A stretch of 64,000 bases of DNA, taken from the IMG/VR virus record IMGVR_UViG_3300048854_000273, positions 43,413-107,412 of that record. The stretch is one strand, 5' to 3'. Each line of letters begins with the position of its first letter. Position 1 is the stretch's first letter. Origin of the DNA: a virus (Duplodnaviria; Heunggongvirae; Uroviricota; Caudoviricetes). The translations under genes and the position numbers were made by a program. The notes below the pieces were generated by a model. The model made no database searches and had not been told where the DNA came from. It saw only the letters and a list, made by a program, of their open reading frames with translations. This document shows positions 3,589-61,189 of this stretch, one piece after another.

Positions 3589-4237
3589 CTTTGTATCCTT
3601 CGGGGGTGTAGGCGACCTCGATCTTTTCGCGGTAGCGCTTCTCGATGTAGACGGAAGGCGCCAAGTCCGCGCGCAGGTCGAGGTGAGTGGTAGCGACAAG
3701 CAGCGTCGCGCCGGCGGTGCGGGCGACCTTCTGCATGTTGAAAGCAATGACGCGGGCAGTGTCCCGGTCGACCACGGCGAGAAACTCGTCGGCAACCCAG
3801 ACCTTGGCGTTCGCTTCGATCAGCTTGGCGAGACGGAACCGGTAGCGCTGCCCGTCCGACAGCTCGGCGGGCTTGCGAATGAACAGGTAGGCGTCGTTCA
3901 GGCCCGCGATCGACAGGTATTTCAGCGCGTCGTTGGTGTCGGTGCCGATCTGGTTGATGAGCGGGCAGTCCTGGAACTGGATCTCATCGATATCGCACAC
4001 GGCGTCGCCGGCGGCCTTCATCTGCGCCTTCAGCTCTCGCAGGACTGTGGACTTTCCCGAGCCGGACTGGCCGGTCACGTAGACCACATCTCCCTGCTCG
4101 ATATCGATTGCCTGGTTGTCGAAAACGACGAATTCCTTGTCGTCCAGACCCAGCCCGAACGCTTCGGCGATCTCCAGCACGCGGTCGGTGCGCTCAACCG
4201 TCGCCGTGAAGCGCTTGTTCACCATGTATTGAGTCAT
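3575..4237 (-). CDS. ABC-transporter-type ATP-binding domain protein (stand-alone NBD)
   Basis: Walker A GQSGSGKST, ABC signature LSDGQRYRFRLA, Walker B VWVADEF, H-loop TTHLD; start taken at MTQYMVNKRF. Confidence 0.65.
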   Translation of the reverse strand: MTQYMVNKRFTATVERTDRVLEIAEAFGLGLDDKEFVVFDNQAIDIEQGDVVYVTGQSGSGKSTVLRELKAQMKAAGDAVCDIDEIQFQDCPLINQIGTDTNDALKYLSIAGLNDAYLFIRKPAELSDGQRYRFRLAKLIEANAKVWVADEFLAVVDRDTARVIAFNMQKVARTAGATLLVATTHLDLRADLAPSVYIEKRYREKIEVAYTPEGYKDAGH

Positions 4238-4760: not shown

Positions 4761-5411
4761 TCATGCGCTTGTCACTTCCTTTGCGTGAGCAACCAGCGCG
4801 TCGGCGCCGGTCAAACCTGTCTGGGATTCGATCGTTGCCATGAAGCGCGCAAGGTGACGCTCATCGCGGCCCGCGATGCTCTTGAAGCCCAGCACCTTGT
4901 CGAGCCGCACATCACGCGAATCGGTTTCCTCGACTGCCTTGGTTGCCGACTGAGCCTGCTCACGCACGACCACGTTCAGATCCTCGACGAACGGTGCGTC
5001 GTTGATTTCGCCCAGGTCCGCGGTCATGAACTCCAGCTCCTTCGCGTCGAAGATGCCTTCGAGGCTGACTTCAAGCGAGGCCAGTTCTTCCTGAAGCAGG
5101 CGCGCGTCGATCTCCGAGATCGCAACGCGGTTGTCGGCCAGACGCAGCGCCTTGGCTTCTTCCTTCGAGAGGTCATCGCGGACCACGACCGGAACGTGCT
5201 TCAGCACAGGTTCAAGTAGCGATGCGAGGCGCCGGCCGTGACCCGCGATGATCGTGCCGTCGGCTTCCGTGACGATCGCCGTGGTCCAGCCGAACGTGTC
5301 GATGGACTTTCTGATCTTGGCGATCTGCGCGGCGTCGTGGATCTTCGCGTTGCCCGCGTAGGGCTTCAGGAAGTCGATCGGCTTCAGTTGTGGCTTGAAT
5401 TCTTGACTCAT
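4761..5411 (-). CDS. ParB-like nuclease domain protein
   Basis: ParB/Srx N-terminal motif TIIAGHGRRLA. Confidence 0.65.
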   Translation of the reverse strand: MSQEFKPQLKPIDFLKPYAGNAKIHDAAQIAKIRKSIDTFGWTTAIVTEADGTIIAGHGRRLASLLEPVLKHVPVVVRDDLSKEEAKALRLADNRVAISEIDARLLQEELASLEVSLEGIFDAKELEFMTADLGEINDAPFVEDLNVVVREQAQSATKAVEETDSRDVRLDKVLGFKSIAGRDERHLARFMATIESQTGLTGADALVAHAKEVTSA

Positions 5412-5600: not shown

Positions 5601-5987
5601 TCAGACGATCACCCAGTCTTCAGCCAGCATGTCGGTCTGAGTTGGCACCCACGGGACTAACTTGTCGTCGGTTGTCTTGATGCAGACCCAGGGCAGCTCC
5701 GGCAGCTCGCCACCCTTACTGCTCGTCAGCAAGCAGCCCTGTGGGTCAAAAATTTCGAGCCACATGCCCTTGCCGTTCCATCCCGCGCGCGCGACTCGCT
5801 GGTCTAGCTTCACCGCGTCAATCGCTAGTCCAAACGTGAGACCATCAGCGGCGCGATAGGCTTTGTGGAACGTGTCAGCAGGTGACCAGCTCATGTAGCC
5901 GTCCTCGTATTGAACGGTGTAACCGTCGACGCCCTCACGGGCCTGCGGCTGTGCCTGGACGATCTTTGTGCCGATATAGCGCTTCAT
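5601..5987 (-). CDS. DUF2829-like protein
   Basis: ARAGWNGKGMWLEI matches the conserved GWNGKGM core of the phage-associated DUF2829 family (from memory). Confidence 0.5.
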   Translation of the reverse strand: MKRYIGTKIVQAQPQAREGVDGYTVQYEDGYMSWSPADTFHKAYRAADGLTFGLAIDAVKLDQRVARAGWNGKGMWLEIFDPQGCLLTSSKGGELPELPWVCIKTTDDKLVPWVPTQTDMLAEDWVIV

Positions 5988-6021: not shown

Positions 6022-6669
6022 TTAATGCGTAAGCAGATGGACCAGCGCGTTGCCAGCGTTGGTCAGGGAGTCGTCTTCGGTGAACCGCTGGGCCTTCATC
6101 GTGGACTCGATCAACTCCGTGATGGTGCTGACGTCCTCGACCGGAACCTTGAAGCGCATCACCTGGTGGGTCTGAACCGCCTTCTCTTTCGGGAGAACGC
6201 TCGGGCTCCCGTCATCGTCCGGTATGTCTAAATCATCCAGCGCTATATTTACTGACGAGAAGATCGACGCGAAATCAGCGTCGGTGTAGGGCATGAAGCT
6301 CGCGAGGTCATCGGGTGAGCCCAGACCTTCCAGAAGCTCCGCCAGGCGCAACGTGTCGTCGTTGCCGTAGCGGCCGTTGTCGACCAGGCTGATCTCTTTT
6401 GCCCGCTTGTCGTCAATGCGACCGAGGTTCGTCACCGGCACCTGCGATAGCTTCAAACGGATCGCTGCATCGCGCCGGTGTGCGCCGCCCAGGATCTCCA
6501 GTGAGCCGTCATCCAGTTCGCGAACGATGATCGGCTTGAAGAGGCCCAGGCGCGTGATGGACGCGTCAATCTTGGCCTCGTTCTCGGGGCTGACCACGTT
6601 CGTGTTCCAGCCGTTGTGCTTCAATCGCTCGGGCGCGATCTGCACCGACTGGAATGGGGTTTTGCTCAT
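6022..6669 (-). CDS. ParB-like nuclease domain protein
   Basis: LEILGGAHRRDAAIRL ParB-type motif; AGGA RBS; motif 6690-6703 lies 20 nt upstream. Confidence 0.65.
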   Translation of the reverse strand: MSKTPFQSVQIAPERLKHNGWNTNVVSPENEAKIDASITRLGLFKPIIVRELDDGSLEILGGAHRRDAAIRLKLSQVPVTNLGRIDDKRAKEISLVDNGRYGNDDTLRLAELLEGLGSPDDLASFMPYTDADFASIFSSVNIALDDLDIPDDDGSPSVLPKEKAVQTHQVMRFKVPVEDVSTITELIESTMKAQRFTEDDSLTNAGNALVHLLTH

Positions 6670-10153: not shown

Positions 10154-10658
10154 TGAGGGCAGCATGATCGAAGAATGGCGGGATGTGGTGGGCGCAGCGG
10201 GTCTTTACGAGGTGTCGAACCTTGGGCGAGTGCGGAAGGACGGCGGTCGCGTCATGGCGACTCAGCGGGTCTCCAAAGACGACGCTCATCGACGGGCGCG
10301 CCTGACCATTGCCGATAAGCGCGTGAAGCGACTGGTTCACGTTCTTGTTCTGGAAGCGTTTGTCGGGCCGCGGCCGCTCGGAATGGAAAGTTGTCATGAC
10401 GACGACGACCCCGAAAACAACGCTCTCTCGAACCTGCGATGGGACACCTCGCTCGGGAACAAGCAGGACGCTCAGCGGAACGGTCGCACGGCTCGGGGTG
10501 AGCGCATTGCACAATCAACCCTCACAGAGGCTCAGGTGCGAAAGATCAAGTCGGCGGCCGGCAAGAGCGAGCGTGAACTGGCTCGTGAATTCGGCGTCAC
10601 GCGCGGGGCAATTCAGGGCGTGAAGCGCGGCACCACGTGGGCGTGGCTGGAAGTATAA
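10154..10658 (+). CDS. HNH homing endonuclease (NUMOD4 + HNH + C-terminal HTH)
   Basis: YEVSNLGRVR (NUMOD4), CHDDDDPENNALSNLRWDT (HNH), ...LAREFGVTRGAIQ (HTH); GAGGG RBS. Confidence 0.75.
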
Positions 10659-10986
10659 GGAGAGGGGCTCCTGGGCGGCCTGGATCTGTAAGGATGCGTC
10701 CTGGGGACCGGAAGTTCCACAAGGGAGGGCCATCAGCTCGACCGGGATTTTCTAGGACTTCGACTCTCCCGGTGGACGCGAATCGTCCGCGTCCAGTCAG
10801 CGCACGACAGCGCGCGCTATCGTGTTGTGTGTCGTGCGGTTCGCAATGCGTTTGCAGTCACGCGAGACCGCTTGTAACGCGCTATCGTGCGCATATGAAT
10901 ACAGACACAGCAGACCGCATGCGATCAGCAACAGAGACACGATCAGCAACAAATCGAACATACAACCCTCTCGAATGAGAACTGAG

Positions 10987-11002
10987 CGTTTCACGTGAAA
11001 CA
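10987..11002. promoter_or_regulatory. canonical parS centromere-like site CGTTTCACGTGAAACA
   Basis: 15/16 match to the chromosomal parS consensus TGTTTCACGTGAAACA; perfect 14-bp palindrome GTTTCACGTGAAAC. Confidence 0.6.
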
Positions 11003-11015
11003 CTCAGTTTTGACT
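11002..11015 (+). promoter_or_regulatory. motif ACTCAGTTTTGACT abutting parS
   Basis: read directly. Confidence 0.55.
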
Positions 11016-11023
11016 ATCTCTAG

Positions 11024-11770
11024 TTACACAGAAAAGAGCGCTTGCACTTTCTTAGCTGCGTTCGACTCAGTGAGCGTGATTGAGTCGTCTTTACGACCCT
11101 TCACGACGTTGCAAATGTTCATAAAGCGCAACATTTGACGCGTGCTAGATGCTTGCGTGCTTGCGGTTGACGGTTCGCACATTTTGAAGCTGCGCACCGC
11201 TTCGGTTTGCATATCTTCACTAAAGACAACTTTATTTGAGAGCGAGATTTGCGAACCGCGATTAGACAGCGCTTGCAACTTCGTCAGATTACGCAGAATA
11301 GCGACCGTGTAACCGTCAAATACTGACGTCATACCGCATGCGAGAGCAAACACCGCTTTACGGATCTTTTGCGCTGCATAGATAGCGATGTAGTCGTGTG
11401 CGCGTGCATCGCTAATGGCGTATTGGCGCGACAGCGCTTCAAAGTCAATTTCAAGCTCAATGCAACGCTCAATAGCGATCAGAGCATTACGACCGCTCAA
11501 AGCGCTCAATTCAGCGTTCATGTTCTTTTTGAAGTTATCGGACGGTGCATTCACAATGCGCGTTTTGATCGATTCGAGAATCAGCGTTTGCATGCGAACC
11601 GCTTTATCTGCATTCGATTCAGTTTGAACCGGTGCAGCGCTTTCAATCGTCGTTTCGACTGCGAGCGCTTCAACCGTTTGCACTTCGTCTCGCGTGAGCG
11701 TTTCGACAGCTTGAACCGGTGCGTTCTTACGTGCGCGCTTTGCTTTCGTGACGTTTGCTTGTGCGTTCAT
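11024..11770 (-). CDS. hypothetical protein (248 aa) in a low-GC island
   Basis: ORF with distinctly lower GC than neighbours; flanked by parS (10987) and a half-parS TGTTTCACGTG (11783-11793). Confidence 0.5.
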   Translation of the reverse strand: MNAQANVTKAKRARKNAPVQAVETLTRDEVQTVEALAVETTIESAAPVQTESNADKAVRMQTLILESIKTRIVNAPSDNFKKNMNAELSALSGRNALIAIERCIELEIDFEALSRQYAISDARAHDYIAIYAAQKIRKAVFALACGMTSVFDGYTVAILRNLTKLQALSNRGSQISLSNKVVFSEDMQTEAVRSFKMCEPSTASTQASSTRQMLRFMNICNVVKGRKDDSITLTESNAAKKVQALFSV

Positions 11771-11800
11771 TTTTCGACTCTCAAAGTGTGTTGTGTTTCA

Positions 11801-11814
11801 CGTGTCAGACAGTC
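11801..11814 (+). promoter_or_regulatory. motif AGTCAGTTTTTACT
   Basis: 30 nt upstream of 11024..11770 start; preceded by half-parS. Confidence 0.55.
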
Positions 11815-11982
11815 AGTTTTTACTGTCTGTCTCGCTACAACGTTGCAGCGAGTAGAGACAGTATGACGACATATGAAACACATGTAAATATCTTTCGCAC
11901 GTATTTTCTAGAGTCGTTACTGGAGTTGTTTTTGCGCGGAACCGCTTGCAGGGCCGCTCGGGCGGGTGTAGTGGCGAGGGCT

Positions 11983-12058
11983 GGATGAGGACGCTCCTCA
12001 GTCAGGCGGGTGGATGAGGATGATCCTTGTCCTAGGGCGTGGATGAGGACGCTCCTCA
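11983..12058 (+). repeat. three direct repeats GGATGAGGA(CGCTCCTCA) at 11983, 12012, 12041 (exact 29-bp period)
   Basis: read directly; non-coding stretch that also contains CCTAGG x3. Confidence 0.6.
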
Positions 12059-19182: not shown

Positions 19183-19347
19183 CTAGACGACCAGCCCAAT
19201 GCCGCCGTCGACCAACGCCGTTGCGTGGTCGCTCAACACGGTGCCCACGATCTTGCGACCGTAGCGGATGGTGACATTCAAGCAGAACGCCCGGTCGGCG
19301 TTGCCTTCACGCTCCGTATGCCGCAAGGCGGCGAGGACTGCGCTCAT
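19183..19347 (-). CDS. small protein (54 aa), not in ORF track
   Basis: MSAVLAALRHTEREGNADRAFCLNVTIRYGRKIVGTVLSDHATALVDGGIGLVV; GAGGT RBS 5 nt upstream. Confidence 0.35.
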   Translation of the reverse strand: MSAVLAALRHTEREGNADRAFCLNVTIRYGRKIVGTVLSDHATALVDGGIGLVV

Positions 19348-41023: not shown

Positions 41024-41037
41024 ACTCAGTTTTGACT
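41024..41037 (+). promoter_or_regulatory. motif ACTCAGTTTTGACT
   Basis: 7 nt after the nrdA stop; followed by hairpin+U5 40995-41013. Confidence 0.55.
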
Positions 41038-41043
41038 GTTTTA

Positions 41044-53947: not shown

Positions 53948-53961
53948 AGTCAGTTTTGACT
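53948..53961 (+). promoter_or_regulatory. motif AGTCAGTTTTGACT
   Basis: 29 nt upstream of the GTG at 53918 (107 nt upstream of ATG 53840) of the SSB gene. Confidence 0.6.
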
Positions 53962-53979
53962 ATCCTTCGACAGGCAAAA

Positions 53980-55098: not shown

Positions 55099-58000
55099 TC
55101 AGTTAAGACAATCAGCCACCTTTTCAAATACGGCTGCCAGGATCTCGGCCTTCGATGTGTCGAACAGGATCTGCTGCGCGTTAATGCCGCACACGATGCT
55201 CGCGTCCAACGTCTTGTCGAAGATCACCTTGCCGGCGAGTTCGGCCGTGCCGCCCTTGATGCCCGGCACGAAGTGCTTGATCGACGCCGAGCCAAGCGCC
55301 ACGATCACCGCGGGCTTGATCAGCTCCAGCTCGCGCTGAAGGAAGCCCTTGCAGCCGTTGATCTGGGCGTTCGAGAGGAACTTGTCGCTCTTTTTCGCCT
55401 TGACCAGCGACGTGTAATAGCCCTCTGCCGGATTGAGTCCCGCCTGCTTGATCGCTTCCTTGATGAAGTCGGCCGCATCCCCTTCAAGCATCTTGTCGGC
55501 CTTCTCCTCCTGCCAGCTCGGACAGTCGGACACGACCATGAACTTAACCGTGTGCTTGGCTCGCACAGTCGGGTGTGGCTGACCCGCCAGATCGCAGCCC
55601 TCGCAGTTCTTGTATTCCTGCACGAGGCTGATCACCTTTGCACGCAGGAACGTTTCTTTCAGGTCTGTCGTGCGATCGGCCTTCACGCTGTCGATGATGA
55701 GGCCGCCCATCAGTTCGGTCTGTTCACGGCGTCGGTCCGGGTGTCGCGCAGGTTTTGCCCCTGGTTGCAGCGGCACGAGGGCGCCGACTTTATCCAGCCC
55801 ATCGCGGACCTTGCTGTTGACCTTCGAGCCCTTTGCTTCCGTGATGTTCAGGAACTCATCCATGTCCTTGAACGTGCCGCCGTTCTGGCGCCGCAGCTCC
55901 ACAATGCGCAGTGCCGTGTTCTCGGAGATACCCTTCACGGCCGAGAACGGCGCGAGCAGGTGGTTGTCGTCGGGAATCGTGAAGCGCTCGCGCGACAGGT
56001 TGATATCGGGCGGCAGCACTTCGATGCCGAACTCACGCGCTTCCTCAACGAGACTCGGCAGCTTTTCTTCCTTCACGATCGACATGCAGGCGGCGAAGTA
56101 TTCCGCCGGGTAGCGCACGCGCACCCACATCGTCCAGTAGGAGATGAGCGAATACTCCACCGCGTGCGAGCGGTTGAAACCGTAGCCTGCAAAGGCTTCG
56201 ATCTTGTCGAACAGCTTGCCGGCGGGGATTTCGTCCATGCCCGACTTGGCGAGACAGCCGTCGACCCACTTCTGTCGCATTTCGGCCATCTTGTCCTTGT
56301 CCTTCTTGCCCATCGCTTTGCGCAGGTGATCCGCTTCAGCGCGCGTAAAGCCCGCCAGATCGACCGCCACCTGCATGACCTGTTCCTGATAGACGATGAC
56401 GCCGTAGGTGTCCTTTAGCGCCGCCTCCATGTTCGGATGATCGTAGTAGACAGACTTGGCACCTTGCTTGATCTGGATGAAGTCGTCCATCAGCCCCGAG
56501 TCCATTGGACCTGGCCGGTAAAGCGCGGTCGCGGCGGTTACGTCCTCGAACGTGAGCAGCCCACCCATCGCGAGATTGCGCAGCAGTGCCTTCATGCCGC
56601 CCGAGTCGAACTGGAACACGCCGGTTGTGTCACCCTTGCCGAACGCAGCCATAATGTCTGGCTCCTCCAGCGGCAAGTCCAGGTAGTCGATTTTCTTGCC
56701 GTGCCGCTCCCCGATGTAGGTCTTGGCAATCTCCAGCACGTCGAGCGTGGAGAGCCCCAGAATATCCATCTTGACCAGGCCCCAGTCCTCGACGACGCGC
56801 TTGTCCCAGTTCACGACCGGCGACTCGCCGCGCGTTTCAACGACTGCCCGGTTGATCAGCGGCTCGCCTGCGACAACCACACCGGCTGCGTGCTGCCCGA
56901 ACGAACGCATGGCCCCTTCGAGCTTGAGCGCATGGCCCCAGACCTCCGGGTGGGTGTCACGGAACTTCTCCAGGTCAGCAACCGCCTTCGCCGCTTCGGT
57001 GAGCGTGAAGGAGTTGCCGTGCTCTTTCGGCACGAGCTTGGTCGCGGCCAGGTCCAGGTTCGACAGACCCCACACGCGCCCCGTGTCGCGCAGCGCCGAT
57101 GCAGAGGCGAGCGTCGAGAAATTGGAGATGCCGGCGACGCGGTCGGCGCCGTATTTGCCGGTCAGATATTCAATCACCAGATGGCGCTTGCTCGACATGA
57201 AGTCCAGGTCAGCATCGGGCAAATCCAGACGCTCGGGATTGATGAAGCGCTCGAACAGGAGGTTGAAGCGGATCGGATCCACGTCCGTGATGCCGAGCAG
57301 ATACGCAACGAGCGAGCCGCCGACCGAACCGCGGCCTGGCCCGACGATAATGTCGTTCGCCTTCGCCCACATGACAAGGTCTTCGACCAGCAGGAAGTAG
57401 CCGGCGAAGCCCATTTTCTTGAGCACGCCCAACTCATACTGGAGCCGCGTCTTGTATTCAGGCATGAGCGACACGGGCGGCAGATAGCCGAGCACCGGAT
57501 ACGTGAAGCGCCGCTTCCAGCCCTCAATGCACTTCCTGCCAAGCGTGACGAACTCGTTCTCGGCCATTGCGGGCAGCGAGACCGGGTGTTTCTTGAACTC
57601 GTAGCCGCACTTCGCCGCGAGCTTCTCGACGTTGGTCAAGCCAGCCAGCCACAGATGTGGCTCATGCACGCCGTAGAACCGCTTCACGCGTGTGGCGGCC
57701 GCCTTCAGCCGCTCGATGACGTGCTTGGGCTCGGCGAAACCAAAGTCGCGCACGTGCTGGATGGGTCGATACGAGACGTCCATCTTCGTGTTCGACGTCA
57801 CTGCGCCCAGCACGTCCAGGCTGTCCGCGTCGGTGTTCTCGCGATAGAGCGTCGGATAGTTGACGATCGTCTGGACTTCGTGGACGCGCGCGGCCTTCAG
57901 CGCTTCGGCGTTCAGAGTGTCGAATAGCGGCGTGTTGATCGGGACGAGCTCCACCAAAAAGTCGTCCCTGAACGTCATGTTCAGCCGTAGCGCGATATCG

Positions 58001-58464
58001 AACGCTTCCGGGTGGTGGAACAGGTTGAAGAAGTCGCCCGTTGTCACCACGACGCCTTCGAGCTTCAACACGTCCTCGAGCCCGACGCGCGACACGTAGT
58101 AGAAGTAGTCCGGCGAGTTCGCTTTCGACAGCAGCTTGATCAGTCCGGCGACACCGCGCTCGTCCTTCGCATACACCTTCAGGGTGTAGCCGCGGTTCGG
58201 CTTTTCCTTCTCGCCCGACGCCTTCGGCGGCTTGCGGTAGGTGGGATCGTCGACCACGCGCACCGCACATCCGATGATCGGCTTGATGCCGGCTTTCTTC
58301 GCGCGCTGCGAGAAATCGACCATCGCGTGCAGGCTCATTTCATCGACGAGGGCGACGGACTCGTAGCCCAGCTCCTTCGCCTTGCTGACGATATGGTCGA
58401 CCTGCAAGAGTGACTTGCCGATCGAAAAGTCGGAGCGCACCGCGAGGGCATGTCCGAGATTCAT
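55099..58464 (-). CDS. dnaE: DNA polymerase III alpha subunit (DnaE-type, PHP + Pol-beta-like palm)
   Basis: 1121 aa; N-terminal PHP domain; conserved DnaE blocks (GPGRGS, LLFERF, YRPGPM). Confidence 0.9.
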   Translation of the reverse strand: MNLGHALAVRSDFSIGKSLLQVDHIVSKAKELGYESVALVDEMSLHAMVDFSQRAKKAGIKPIIGCAVRVVDDPTYRKPPKASGEKEKPNRGYTLKVYAKDERGVAGLIKLLSKANSPDYFYYVSRVGLEDVLKLEGVVVTTGDFFNLFHHPEAFDIALRLNMTFRDDFLVELVPINTPLFDTLNAEALKAARVHEVQTIVNYPTLYRENTDADSLDVLGAVTSNTKMDVSYRPIQHVRDFGFAEPKHVIERLKAAATRVKRFYGVHEPHLWLAGLTNVEKLAAKCGYEFKKHPVSLPAMAENEFVTLGRKCIEGWKRRFTYPVLGYLPPVSLMPEYKTRLQYELGVLKKMGFAGYFLLVEDLVMWAKANDIIVGPGRGSVGGSLVAYLLGITDVDPIRFNLLFERFINPERLDLPDADLDFMSSKRHLVIEYLTGKYGADRVAGISNFSTLASASALRDTGRVWGLSNLDLAATKLVPKEHGNSFTLTEAAKAVADLEKFRDTHPEVWGHALKLEGAMRSFGQHAAGVVVAGEPLINRAVVETRGESPVVNWDKRVVEDWGLVKMDILGLSTLDVLEIAKTYIGERHGKKIDYLDLPLEEPDIMAAFGKGDTTGVFQFDSGGMKALLRNLAMGGLLTFEDVTAATALYRPGPMDSGLMDDFIQIKQGAKSVYYDHPNMEAALKDTYGVIVYQEQVMQVAVDLAGFTRAEADHLRKAMGKKDKDKMAEMRQKWVDGCLAKSGMDEIPAGKLFDKIEAFAGYGFNRSHAVEYSLISYWTMWVRVRYPAEYFAACMSIVKEEKLPSLVEEAREFGIEVLPPDINLSRERFTIPDDNHLLAPFSAVKGISENTALRIVELRRQNGGTFKDMDEFLNITEAKGSKVNSKVRDGLDKVGALVPLQPGAKPARHPDRRREQTELMGGLIIDSVKADRTTDLKETFLRAKVISLVQEYKNCEGCDLAGQPHPTVRAKHTVKFMVVSDCPSWQEEKADKMLEGDAADFIKEAIKQAGLNPAEGYYTSLVKAKKSDKFLSNAQINGCKGFLQRELELIKPAVIVALGSASIKHFVPGIKGGTAELAGKVIFDKTLDASIVCGINAQQILFDTSKAEILAAVFEKVADCLN

Positions 58465-61152: not shown

Positions 61153-61166
61153 ACTCAGTTTTTACT
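61153..61166 (+). promoter_or_regulatory. motif ACTCAGTTTTTACT
   Basis: between the cobT-like stop and the cobS-like start. Confidence 0.5.
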
Positions 61167-61189
61167 GTTCTCAAGCGGCAAAAAAAATG

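Follow-up and report, generated by a model that had tools for sequence, protein, structure and literature searches.

A putative host-type parS site fused to a promoter-like motif in a phage related to prophages of Burkholderiales

Introduction

The biology of parS sites, of ParB and of its CTP-dependent clamps is well understood on chromosomes and plasmids. Partition sites are also found on phage genomes, namely those of the plasmid-prophages P1 and P7 (parS) and N15 (sop-type centromeres), the latter being scattered between phage genes and close to promoters. P1, P7 and N15 encode their own cognate ParA/ParB (SopA/SopB) proteins, to which the sites are specific. Proteins of the ParB family can furthermore act on transcription, as exemplified by KorB, which represses adjacent genes of RK2 from the OB operators, i.e. 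palindromes in promoter regions. Finally, T4-type phages possess promoter-stem-loop cassette boundaries (PeSLs), in which a repeated promoter motif together with a stem-loop flanks small early genes.

The use of a partition system encoded elsewhere was shown experimentally for SGI1, which exploits the parABS of its IncC helper plasmid (PMC10954446). A precedent for regulation comes from P. aeruginosa, in which the native ParB represses promoters beside the intergenic sites parS3 and parS4 (PMC5521831). In B. cenocepacia, parSc1 reads exactly TGTTTCACGTGAAACA, and all symmetrical changes of parS abolished ParB-c1 binding save those at positions 1/16 and 5/12 (PMC5450999). However, searches of the full-text literature found no report of a phage that has the chromosomal centromere of its host but no cognate partition system.

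Here we analysed 64,000 nucleotides (hereafter the window) of a 156.7-kb contig of a Caudoviricetes phage. On balance, we favour the view that a 16-mer in this window is a functional copy of the host-chromosome centromere on a Burkholderiales phage, a cognate canonical parAB being absent from the 64 kb. It is the same 16-bp palindrome as in chromosomal parS (B. subtilis-type TGTTNCACGTGAAACA; B. cenocepacia parSc1), present in one or two copies per phage. In contrast to the chromosomal sites, it lies on a phage genome instead of near oriC, has no canonical parA or parB in the window, is fused to a promoter-like motif and is embedded in a longer covarying palindrome. Unlike in P1, P7 and N15, the site is apparently that of the host, and the ParB-fold proteins of the phage have no DNA-binding domain. 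The locus resembles PeSLs in that the hairpins are replaced in a patchy manner and the site is duplicated around a gene insertion (L010, L034), which is reminiscent of cassette shuffling, but the phage family and the motif are different and the PeSL stem-loops are not host centromeres. Compared with parSc1, the variation among the phage sites falls mostly on 1/16 and 5/12, which ParB-c1 tolerates (PMC5450999). As in SGI1 (PMC10954446), a mobile element would have the cis site only and use a partition system encoded elsewhere, the presumed provider being here the host chromosome and not a plasmid. Moreover, P. aeruginosa parS3/parS4 (PMC5521831) and KorB-OB of RK2 represent self-regulation, whereas here a phage promoter would be under the control of a host protein.

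The parS core and its surroundings

The 16-mer CGTTTCACGTGAAACA at 10987-11002 agrees with the parS consensus TGTTTCACGTGAAACA at 15 of 16 positions, which reproduces both the position and the match count given in the preliminary description of this DNA. Read on the minus strand, like the adjacent genes, the core is TGTTTCACGTGAAACG, and its deviation from the perfect site is A16G. The same 15/16 was obtained with tGTTNCACGTGNAACa, the 16-bp palindrome of chromosomal-type parS. No other site with at most one mismatch exists in the 64 kb, for which the base composition predicts 2.7e-4 such sites. A functionless chance match could be defended with the arguments that it is a lone short motif and that many windows were screened. 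However, in addition to the low expectation per window, the site is conserved in at least nine lineages and recurs in another phage clade (see below), by which this explanation is effectively refuted; we assign it a probability close to nil.

The core occupies the middle of a 30-bp palindrome (10980-11009), the 15-nt arms of which pair at 14 of 15 positions. If transcribed, it is predicted to form a hairpin of 12-13 bp, and the surrounding 71-nt segment folds with -22 kcal/mol (z = -2.7). The palindrome is situated between two early genes, in the leader of a gene for a small membrane protein of 54 aa (10797-10961, minus strand); this gene has the ribosome-binding site GAGAGGG and is also conserved among relatives. 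An intrinsic (Rho-independent) terminator was considered and rejected: CTCATTCGAG, the sequence behind the stem on the minus strand, has no U-tract, and the terminator scan was blank at 10980-11009. Scans of the window with Rfam at gathering thresholds and for tRNAs gave no matches; the exact 30-mer palindrome does not occur in IMG/VR, and the parS locus found no match in a nucleotide search of the phage collection.

The phage motif, which is also given as AGTCAAAACTGA, exists in 27 copies on the minus strand and one on the plus strand, all of them intergenic. One copy (11004-11019, minus strand, AGATAGTCAAAACTGA) is directly bordered by the parS site, as had been described before, and is also overlapped by it; the left arm of the palindrome is formed by the 3' end of this copy, and the core takes the place of the -10-like part of the motif. 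The second copy of interest (11813-11828, minus strand, AGACAGTAAAAACTGA) is located 43 nt upstream of the start of a 248-aa gene. The motif was rejected as a standard sigma-70 promoter: a -10-like TATAAT follows only some copies, a conserved -35 is missing at the appropriate distance, and 11 nt separate the end of one copy from a start codon. We call it promoter-like or regulatory and infer a promoter role.

Full site and half-site flank the 248-aa gene (11024-11770, minus strand), which lies, consistent with its earlier characterization as a low-GC gene, in the kilobase of lowest GC content in the window (0.49 versus approximately 0.60). The half-site in the 5' leader of this gene also exists, but the position initially given for it (11783-11793) had to be corrected to 11794-11804. 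It reads TGTTTCACGTG on the plus and CACGTGAAACA on the minus strand and lies 9 nt after a motif copy. The three occurrences of the 10-mer CACGTGAAAC, compared to an expectation of 0.18, are confined to the parS and half-site loci; heptamer half-sites are not enriched across the window (7 observed, 8.1 expected). Among the relatives, GTGAAACAC is retained at the half-site in L001, L012, L033 and L037. Absent from the preliminary description were the covarying, hairpin-forming palindrome around the 16-mer and the fusion to the promoter-like motif.

Conservation among related phages

A parS site with at most one mismatch was found at the same spot, immediately behind the stop codon of the homologue of the 248-aa gene, in 9 of 13 related lineages, mostly as perfect TGTTTCACGTGAAACA (L001, L002, L006/7, L010/11, L034/L045 and L037). 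In L010 and L034/L045, another perfect copy follows at a distance of 680-820 bp. The protein encoded next to the site shows only 55-91% identity across the parS-bearing lineages, and the core is the best-conserved stretch, with a mean pairwise identity of 0.96 and 13/16 invariant columns if the decayed site of L012 is excluded (0.93 and 12/16 if it is included), compared to 0.79 for the flanking motif and 0.76 for the right arm. One-mismatch sites carry T5C in a Paraburkholderia MAG (L003/L032), A16G in the window and G11T in L035/36, whereas the site of L012 has 3 mismatches. Of the four lineages in which the site is changed, three have a change at 1/16 or 5/12; A16G and the T5C of L003 fit the positions reported to be tolerated by ParB-c1, but G11T, at a position whose changes abolished binding in the published assay, and the L012 site are exceptions, which we read as probable decay.

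The parS site is dispensable, because it is changed, or another hairpin stands in its position, in several lineages and in distant relatives. Another hairpin occupies the position in 4 of the 13 close lineages (L033, L014, L015 and L004/5/13), a different one in all distant relatives, and every family member has some hairpin there. Scans of nickie (60-110 kb), of B1VFA (1-50 kb) and of parts of the Cupriavidus prophage and L046 revealed no parS.

These observations can also be explained by a structural hairpin only, i.e. an mRNA 3' or 5' stem-loop, a processing site or an attenuator between the 248-aa gene and the next gene, whose identity with parS is a coincidence frozen by descent. All relatives, including those with 35-46% identity and 44-63% GC, have a strong hairpin of unrelated sequence after the gene, some of them with U-tracts, and the close lineages without parS have their hairpin behind the same motif. 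Moreover, the outer stem covaries (GC in 8 and CG in 4 cases at one pair; CG, AU and GC at another), A16G preserves a U-G pair, and the low folding energy mentioned above points in the same direction. Nevertheless, we regard this explanation as unlikely. An 8-bp arm of random sequence would be identical to the parS half-site with a probability of 1.5e-5, and the 8 inner pairs, which form the core, show no compensatory changes while the outer pairs do. T5C and G11T disrupt pairs, with T5C retaining a sequence that ParB tolerates. Furthermore, the second sites of L010 and L034 have imperfect outer palindromes, the sites in Stenotrophomonas phages are not part of an extended palindrome, and the stem in the window has no U-tract on the transcribed strand, nor was a terminator called. 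Under our preferred reading as a host centromere, the palindrome would exceed 16 bp and covary because a hairpin is present here in all members of the family, an older role that the parS sequence would also have kept. Hairpin role and ParB role are separable by a symmetric point mutant.

Host and probable recognition by ParB

The DnaE protein of the phage is 90% identical to a homologue in a Paraburkholderia MAG and 81% to one in Ralstonia pickettii (1.7-Mb contig); identities of 67-70% were found to sequences on large contigs of Undibacterium, Herbaspirillum and Cupriavidus, and an integrase borders the Cupriavidus copy. Prophages of Burkholderiales are the closest relatives, and in these bacteria the centromere of chromosome 1 is the perfect parS 16-mer. 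Host ParB probably binds the phage DNA at parS. The earlier suggestion that a host-type parS could recruit host ParB receives indirect support from the conserved site, from the changes at ParB-tolerated positions, from the Burkholderiales relatives and from the second clade treated below. Since extra parSc1 copies delay the growth of B. cenocepacia (PMC5450999), a prophage-borne parS could be costly. The host is tractable and the system directly testable, because Burkholderia ParB-c1 reagents and binding rules exist.

The two ParB-like proteins

Both ParB-like ORFs of the preliminary description are real. The first (6022-6669, minus strand) matches Pfam ParB_N with 33 bits (cut-off 26.3) and phrog_723 (E = 9e-65); the second (4761-5411, minus strand) matches phrog_930 (E = 2e-74) and has no Pfam or NCBIfam ParB match. 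They display an N-terminal ParB/Srx CTPase fold with the box II-like motifs GGAHRR and AGHGRR. However, TIGR00180 scored only 33.5 bits, below its cut-off of 58.45, covering profile positions 22-98 of 186, and did not match the second protein at all, PDB matches to ParB/Noc comprise only residues about 30-100, the PDB and TIGR00180 matches together being confined to the N-terminal fold (residues about 24-100), and no HTH parS-binding domain was matched in either protein.

It is conceivable that these proteins bind or cut parS, either as a self-encoded partition system or because parS is a nuclease target, as had been considered initially. Their genes lie 4.4-6 kb from parS, and the relative B1VFA has a ParA-family gene beside a helicase. 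Apart from the restriction to the N-terminal fold, several findings speak against it. The homologues are core genes of the phage superfamily, also in relatives without parS, and belong to the core set of SSU5-type, Klebsiella and E. coli phages as well; to our knowledge, the enterobacterial hosts of the latter have no chromosomal parS. They are situated in the terminase/packaging module, beside an ATPase and shortly before the terminase and portal genes. No deviant Walker-A / KGGxGK[ST] motif of ParA and no canonical ParB were detected in the 64-kb window of the 156.7-kb contig, and neither integrase nor ParA was found in ten further ORFs of the window. The 64 kb hence lack a partition cassette of the P1/N15 type (ParA plus cognate DNA-binding ParB); in its place, close prophage relatives possess an integrase. 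The ParA-interaction motif of the ParB N-terminus, (L/F/I)G(K/R)G(L/F/I) (PMC12704722), is absent from both translations, and phage ParB-fold proteins usually miss the DNA-binding domain and may have other roles (PMC12704722, PMC13229309). We judge both proteins as not linked to parS and abandon their use of the site as highly improbable. The annotation of phage proteins as ParB-like nucleases should not be tied to partition.

Recurrence in other phages

The 109 kb of the Stenotrophomonas phage BUCTxx99, a distant relative, contain a single perfect TGTTCCACGTGGAACA, a variant that corresponds to P. aeruginosa parS2/3 (PMC4368675). At the same place, ANB28 carries TGTTCCACGTGAAACA, the sole difference being at position 12, and neither site lies within an extended palindrome. 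Canonical parS is carried independently by a second phage clade with another host. Furthermore, exact parS was found in at least 120 IMG/VR contigs, whereas two matched control palindromes occurred in 8 and 23 contigs, which corresponds to a 5- to 15-fold or greater excess; in some contigs, 4-5 parS copies form arrays that lack a ParA or ParB motif in their vicinity. This excess and the arrays may indicate that an orphan-parS strategy is widespread and undescribed.

Proposed mode of action

In our best reading, the site is a predicted host-ParB loading site, which would gate the adjacent promoter or position the phage DNA. In a first step, a dimer of the chromosome-1-type host ParB would recognise the palindrome, and CTP-bound sliding clamps would be loaded onto the adjacent phage DNA, as at any parS. 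Because the core overlaps the motif within the leader of the membrane-protein gene and the half-site has the same offset behind the motif of the upstream gene, the first-order effect would be an occlusion or roadblock of transcription, according to ParB occupancy and hence to phage copy number. Alternatively or additionally, ParB-parS could couple non-integrated phage DNA to host ParA/SMC and thereby contribute to its positioning or inheritance; parS is located 220-390 bp from a DNA element repeated throughout the family, which is maybe an origin.

More tentatively, it is possible that phages of ParABS hosts commonly carry orphan host centromeres onto which host ParB is loaded, and that a site at a promoter serves as a copy-number timer. 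While phage genomes multiply, ParB would be titrated, its occupancy at the phage promoter would fall and the membrane-protein gene would be timed; the same site could let unintegrated genomes hitch-hike on host ParA/SMC. If host ParB is indeed loaded, this would represent a new kind of host-factor co-option, be it for transcription gating, genome positioning, SMC loading or ParB titration, and the over-representation of parS 16-mers in viral contigs would be explained.

The 248-aa gene and neighbouring elements

The 248-aa protein (phrog_9272/4202) has a predicted fold with a winged helix-turn-helix domain. Its gene is preceded by a sigma-70-type promoter (11860-11888, minus strand, TTTACA-17-CATACT), and the homologues in relatives by TTGCAC-17-CATA(C/A)T; this conserved promoter points to an early gene transcribed by the host RNAP. 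The site could be an operator of this protein, which would control its own gene via the half-site in the leader and the downstream gene via the full palindrome. The flanking of the gene by both sites would fit, as would the restriction of parS in the Burkholderiales clade to phages in which the homologue is at least 55% identical. Yet, several lineages have the gene (71-85% identity) without the site, and BUCTxx99 and ANB28 have canonical parS while tblastn of the 248-aa protein against their phage collection gave no match. An operator would also not explain why the site is exactly that of the host centromere and why the tolerated changes follow a pattern specific to ParB, and we hold it for very unlikely. 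A Rep-type initiator found no support other than a generic winged helix-turn-helix, and repeats within the gene are too irregular to be taken as iterons.

The family-wide conserved non-coding element near parS (10600-10768, minus strand) is composed of GAAGTCCTAG, a CCCTTCCTCGTTCCAG-like block and two TCCTTA(C/T)A boxes approximately 35 bp apart. No consensus RNA fold was found for it across the family, and it may be an origin or a protein-binding array. In the non-coding DNA upstream of the 248-aa gene, three iteron-like repeats TGGATGAGGACGCTCCTCA follow each other with a 29-bp period (11977-12058); among the relatives, L001 has 3 and L006 has 5 copies.

A single host-type parS site joined to a promoter-like phage motif

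On the + strand, the stretch 10980-11015 reads ...GAACTGAG CGTTTCACGTGAAACA CTCAGTTTTGAC..., and its 16-mer at 10987-11002 is identical to the parS consensus TGTTTCACGTGAAACA in 15 of 16 positions, as the preliminary description of this DNA had reported. It is the sole site with at most one mismatch to parS in the 64-kb window, whereas 2.7e-4 such sites are expected from composition; the possibility that parS-like 16-mers occur at random frequency, raised in the same description, does not hold for the window. The only further match with at most three mismatches in the window is the half-site TGTTTCACGTG. Its existence had been noted before, but 11 bases too low, since it is situated at 11794-11804. 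Full site and half-site indeed bracket the low-GC 248-aa gene (11024-11770, - strand), which lies in the window's lowest-GC kilobase (GC 0.49). Heptamer half-sites show no overall enrichment in the window (7 observed versus 8.1 expected); the 10-mer CACGTGAAAC, with an expectation of 0.18, has three occurrences, all at the core and half-site loci. Furthermore, the parS 16-mer sits in the middle of a longer palindrome of 30 bp (10980-11009), whose arms match in 14/15 positions.

The majority of the window genes are located on the - strand, as are 27 copies of a phage motif, A(C/T)AGT(C/A)AAAACTGA(C/G)T, of which a single further copy lies on the + strand (63221). Every copy (for example 11004-11019, 11813-11828, 41026-41041 and 53950-53965) is intergenic with a start codon 11-90 nt downstream, approximately half of them are part of a larger 18-bp palindrome whose ends covary (ATAGTCA-AAAC-TGACTAT or ACAGTCA-AAAC-TGACTGT), and several are followed by TATAAT. 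Strand bias, intergenic placing, palindrome and TATAAT together argue for a regulatory, promoter-like element that is strand-specific and does not resemble a plain sigma-70 promoter. A phage-encoded transcription factor probably uses it as binding site or promoter element, at middle or late promoters.

Read along the - strand, a sigma-70-like promoter (TTTACA-17-CATACT, 11888-11860) upstream of the 248-aa gene is followed by the hairpin CTCGCTGCAACGTTGTAGCGAG, a motif copy (11828-11813) and, 8 nt after it, the half-site CACGTGAAACAC ahead of the gene. The final bases AACTGAG of another motif copy (11019-11004) form the left arm of the parS palindrome; then come the parS core, the right arm CTCAGTT, the ribosome-binding site GAGAGGG and, last, the gene (10961-10797) of a 54-aa membrane protein. 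Other motif copies thus bear TATAAT-like bases at the place that the parS core takes here.

Conservation of the core and of the hairpin

Homologues of the 248-aa protein are encoded on many phage-sized metagenomic contigs (105-119 kb), and an identical protein was found on a 156.7-kb JGI contig. We compared the flanks in 13 lineages with at least 55% identity to this protein (L numbers denote contigs or loci of relatives or of other viruses). Where present, the site lies immediately 3' of the stop codon, joined in constant register to the motif. Its sequence is a perfect TGTTTCACGTGAAACA in L001, L002, L006/7, L010/11, L034/L045 and L037, TGTTCCACGTGAAACA (T5C) in L003/L032 from a Paraburkholderia MAG, TGTTTCACGTGAAACG (A16G) in the window and TGTTTCACGTTAAACA (G11T) in L035/36, and has decayed to three mismatches in L012; L033, L014, L015 and L004/5/13 bear an unrelated hairpin behind the same motif. 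The site is thus dispensable, since about a third of the close lineages have lost it. L010 and L034/L045 contain a second perfect parS 680-820 bp further on; it precedes the motif and, beyond an inserted gene, belongs to the leader of the small membrane-protein gene. Among the ten first sites without the decayed one, the 16-nt core has a mean pairwise identity of 0.96 with 13/16 invariant columns (0.93 and 12/16 with L012 counted), compared to 0.79 for the motif, 0.76 for the right arm and about 0.3 for segments further out.

In L003 (10679-10725), inverted parS half-sites flank the motif (GTGGAACA-GTCAAAACTGAC-TGTTCCAC) and the full site follows, an arrangement that permits either of two hairpins but not both at once; sequence is shared between the motif arm ACAGTCA and the parS flank ACA|GTCA.

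The main rival explanation is that the palindrome serves purely as a hairpin. In all distant relatives (35-46% identity, GC 44-63%), the gene is immediately followed by a strong hairpin whose sequence is unrelated, in some cases with U-tracts, and hence a hairpin at this place is ancestral to the family. Moreover, the outer stem covaries: over 12 sites, pair 7-24 is GC in eight, CG in four and never unpaired, and pair 3-28 is CG, AU or GC. The eight core pairs of the same 12 sites show no two-sided change, just U-G (two sites) or pair-breaking changes. The pair counts separate two superimposed constraints, a covarying outer stem and the core. In B. cenocepacia, the ParB-c1 site parSc1 is exactly TGTTTCACGTGAAACA (PMC5450999); A16G and T5C fall on positions tolerated by ParB-c1, the core substitutions fit the published binding rules (PMC5450999), and T5C persists although it breaks a hairpin pair. 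We consider a pure hairpin role unlikely. In one clade, parS makes up the hairpin stem, and the core there is held by sequence and not by pairing.

Recurrence in other viral genomes

The complete genome of Stenotrophomonas phage BUCTxx99 (OR529408.1, L038; 109,117 bp) has one site only within two mismatches of TGTTNCACGTGNAACA, a perfect TGTTCCACGTGGAACA at 19276-19291, the variant known as parS2/3 of P. aeruginosa (PMC4368675). It is preceded by a terminator and starts a 690-bp non-coding gap in the early region, with the half-sites GTGAAACA and GTGGAACA approximately 90 nt downstream; the annotation lists no integrase, ParA or canonical ParB. Phage ANB28 (L043, 1544-1559) has TGTTCCACGTGAAACA at the equivalent place, differing at position 12 only. 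The two half-sites about 90 nt downstream are conserved, and in both phages parS starts a long non-coding gap. No extended palindrome surrounds either site, an argument for selection on the 16-mer as such. Scans of nickie (60-110 kb), B1VFA (1-50 kb), the Cupriavidus prophage locus and contig L046 detected no parS, so the site recurs without being universal.

In IMG/VR, at least 120 contigs (L047-L166) contain exact TGTTTCACGTGAAACA, compared to 8 and 23 contigs for two composition-matched control palindromes. Among the 120 matches listed, 27 loci have two to five copies, with five in 800 bp in L067, five in 900 bp in L107 and four in L052 and L066. Within about 7 kb of these listed sites, a crude motif search yielded no ParA and two ParB motifs. 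Just 3/120 listed loci showed a weak protein match to the phage family of the window, the contigs being largely unrelated.

The phage ParB-like proteins

Both ParB-like ORFs (6022-6669 and 4761-5411, - strand) encode an N-terminal ParB/Srx fold, and matches to ParB/Noc structures in the PDB and to TIGR00180 are restricted to residues of about 24-100. TIGR00180 reached 33.5 bits against a cut-off of 58.45 (profile positions 22-98 of 186) and did not match the second protein at all; a ParA-interaction motif is absent from both. Homologues of 6022-6669 are core genes throughout the superfamily, including SSU5, Klebsiella and E. coli phage-plasmids. To our knowledge, the hosts of these phage-plasmids have no chromosomal ParABS/parS. 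The ParB-like pair, together with an ABC/AAA ATPase, is encoded a short way upstream of terminase/portal in BUCTxx99, the Cupriavidus prophage, L045 and L046. Phage ParB-fold proteins mostly have no HTH, and one class activates a thymine dioxygenase (PMC12704722, PMC13229309). The partial fold, the missing ParA motif and the status as packaging-side core genes therefore lend no support to the earlier proposal that the phage ParB homologues use or cut parS. Between both genes, 5601-5987 (-) encodes a Tad2-like (Thoeris anti-defence 2) domain protein (Pfam PF11195, 2.8e-23), which is also present in this module of L045 and L046.

Hosts and possible functions of the site

The nearest database relatives of the window's Pol III alpha belong to Burkholderiales: a Paraburkholderia MAG (90% identity, 450-kb contig), Ralstonia pickettii (81%, 1.7-Mb contig), Undibacterium (70%, 4.7-Mb contig), Herbaspirillum (70%) and Cupriavidus campinensis (67%). 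The Cupriavidus copy ends with a tyrosine integrase adjoining a host gene, so the group comprises temperate phages of Burkholderiales. Cultured relatives are more distant (37-45%): Rhizobium phages B1VFA and RHEph10, Stenotrophomonas phage BUCTxx99, Pseudomonas phage nickie and SSU5-type phage-plasmids. The tested window ORFs revealed neither an integrase nor a ParA-type Walker A motif.

The best-supported reading is a host-type centromere that would load host ParB onto phage DNA, and we regard it as rather probable that the site is functional for host ParB. The host-type nature proposed in the preliminary description thus gains support from conservation, substitutions and recurrence. Bound host ParB may then gate the adjacent phage promoter. 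In favour of this outcome, parS and motif are fused in 12/12 clade sites, and the site was duplicated upon gene insertion; the half-site, which trails the upstream motif at an equal distance, likewise suggests promoter gating, and P. aeruginosa parS3/parS4 offer a direct precedent (PMC5521831). Alternatively, as the other canonical outcome, the site may link non-integrated phage genomes to host ParA/SMC and so serve their positioning or inheritance, analogous to SGI1, which uses the IncC parABS (PMC10954446). Extra parSc1 copies slow the growth of B. cenocepacia (PMC5450999); together with the dispensability of the site, this makes the benefit for the phage probably conditional. On this reading, the phage carries an orphan host centromere that at the same time serves as a structural hairpin beside a phage promoter. 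Interest in the site comes from its conservation and recurrence, and from the fact that it can be tested directly.

Several relatives, namely L012 (125-757), L033 (1-10) and L045 (18298-18927), encode MazE/PemK toxin-antitoxin pairs a few kb upstream of the locus, and in B1VFA the ParA-family gene B1VFA_070 adjoins the helicase, which hints at plasmid-like maintenance functions in the superfamily. The window's Pol III alpha-type replicase (55099-58464, -) has an N-terminal family-4 uracil-DNA glycosylase domain (PF03167), a fusion likewise present in nearly all homologues listed.

Further elements around the 248-aa gene

All family members share a non-coding element downstream of the small membrane-protein gene (10600-10768, -, in the window). 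Its components are GAAGTCCTAG, a CCCTTCCTCGTTCCAG-like block and, spaced by about 35 bp, two or three TCCTTATAC boxes; it recurs in L004, L006, L012, L016-L019, L022, L025, L027-L031, L033, L034, L037 and L046, and persists at protein identities down to 35% and GC of 44-63%. No consensus RNA fold was obtained for it. Possible roles are those of an origin, a pac site or another protein-binding array; in the first case, parS would be origin-proximal, as on chromosomes.

Upstream of the 248-aa gene's promoter, a roughly 500-bp non-coding region contains three iteron-like direct repeats TGGATGAGGACGCTCCTCA (11977-12058, 29-bp period), each an internal inverted repeat. L001 has three (2715-2801) and L006 five (3650-3794); L003, L010 and L012 have 81-91-bp repeats instead. 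The palindrome core GCAACGTTGC recurs at two places, inside CTCGCTGCAACGTTGCAGCGAG, a conserved 5' hairpin in the transcript of the 248-aa gene (11831-11852; likewise in L001, L005, L012 and L033) and inside GCAGCAACGTTGCTGC downstream of motif copy 61155-61170, and may be another operator or an RNA stem-loop. Members of the 248-aa protein family vary over the first 50 or so residues, a disordered region, and the 308-aa homologue of L002 (2750-3030) has an expanded N-terminal tandem repeat of ESAAPSN/ESAAPTI units.
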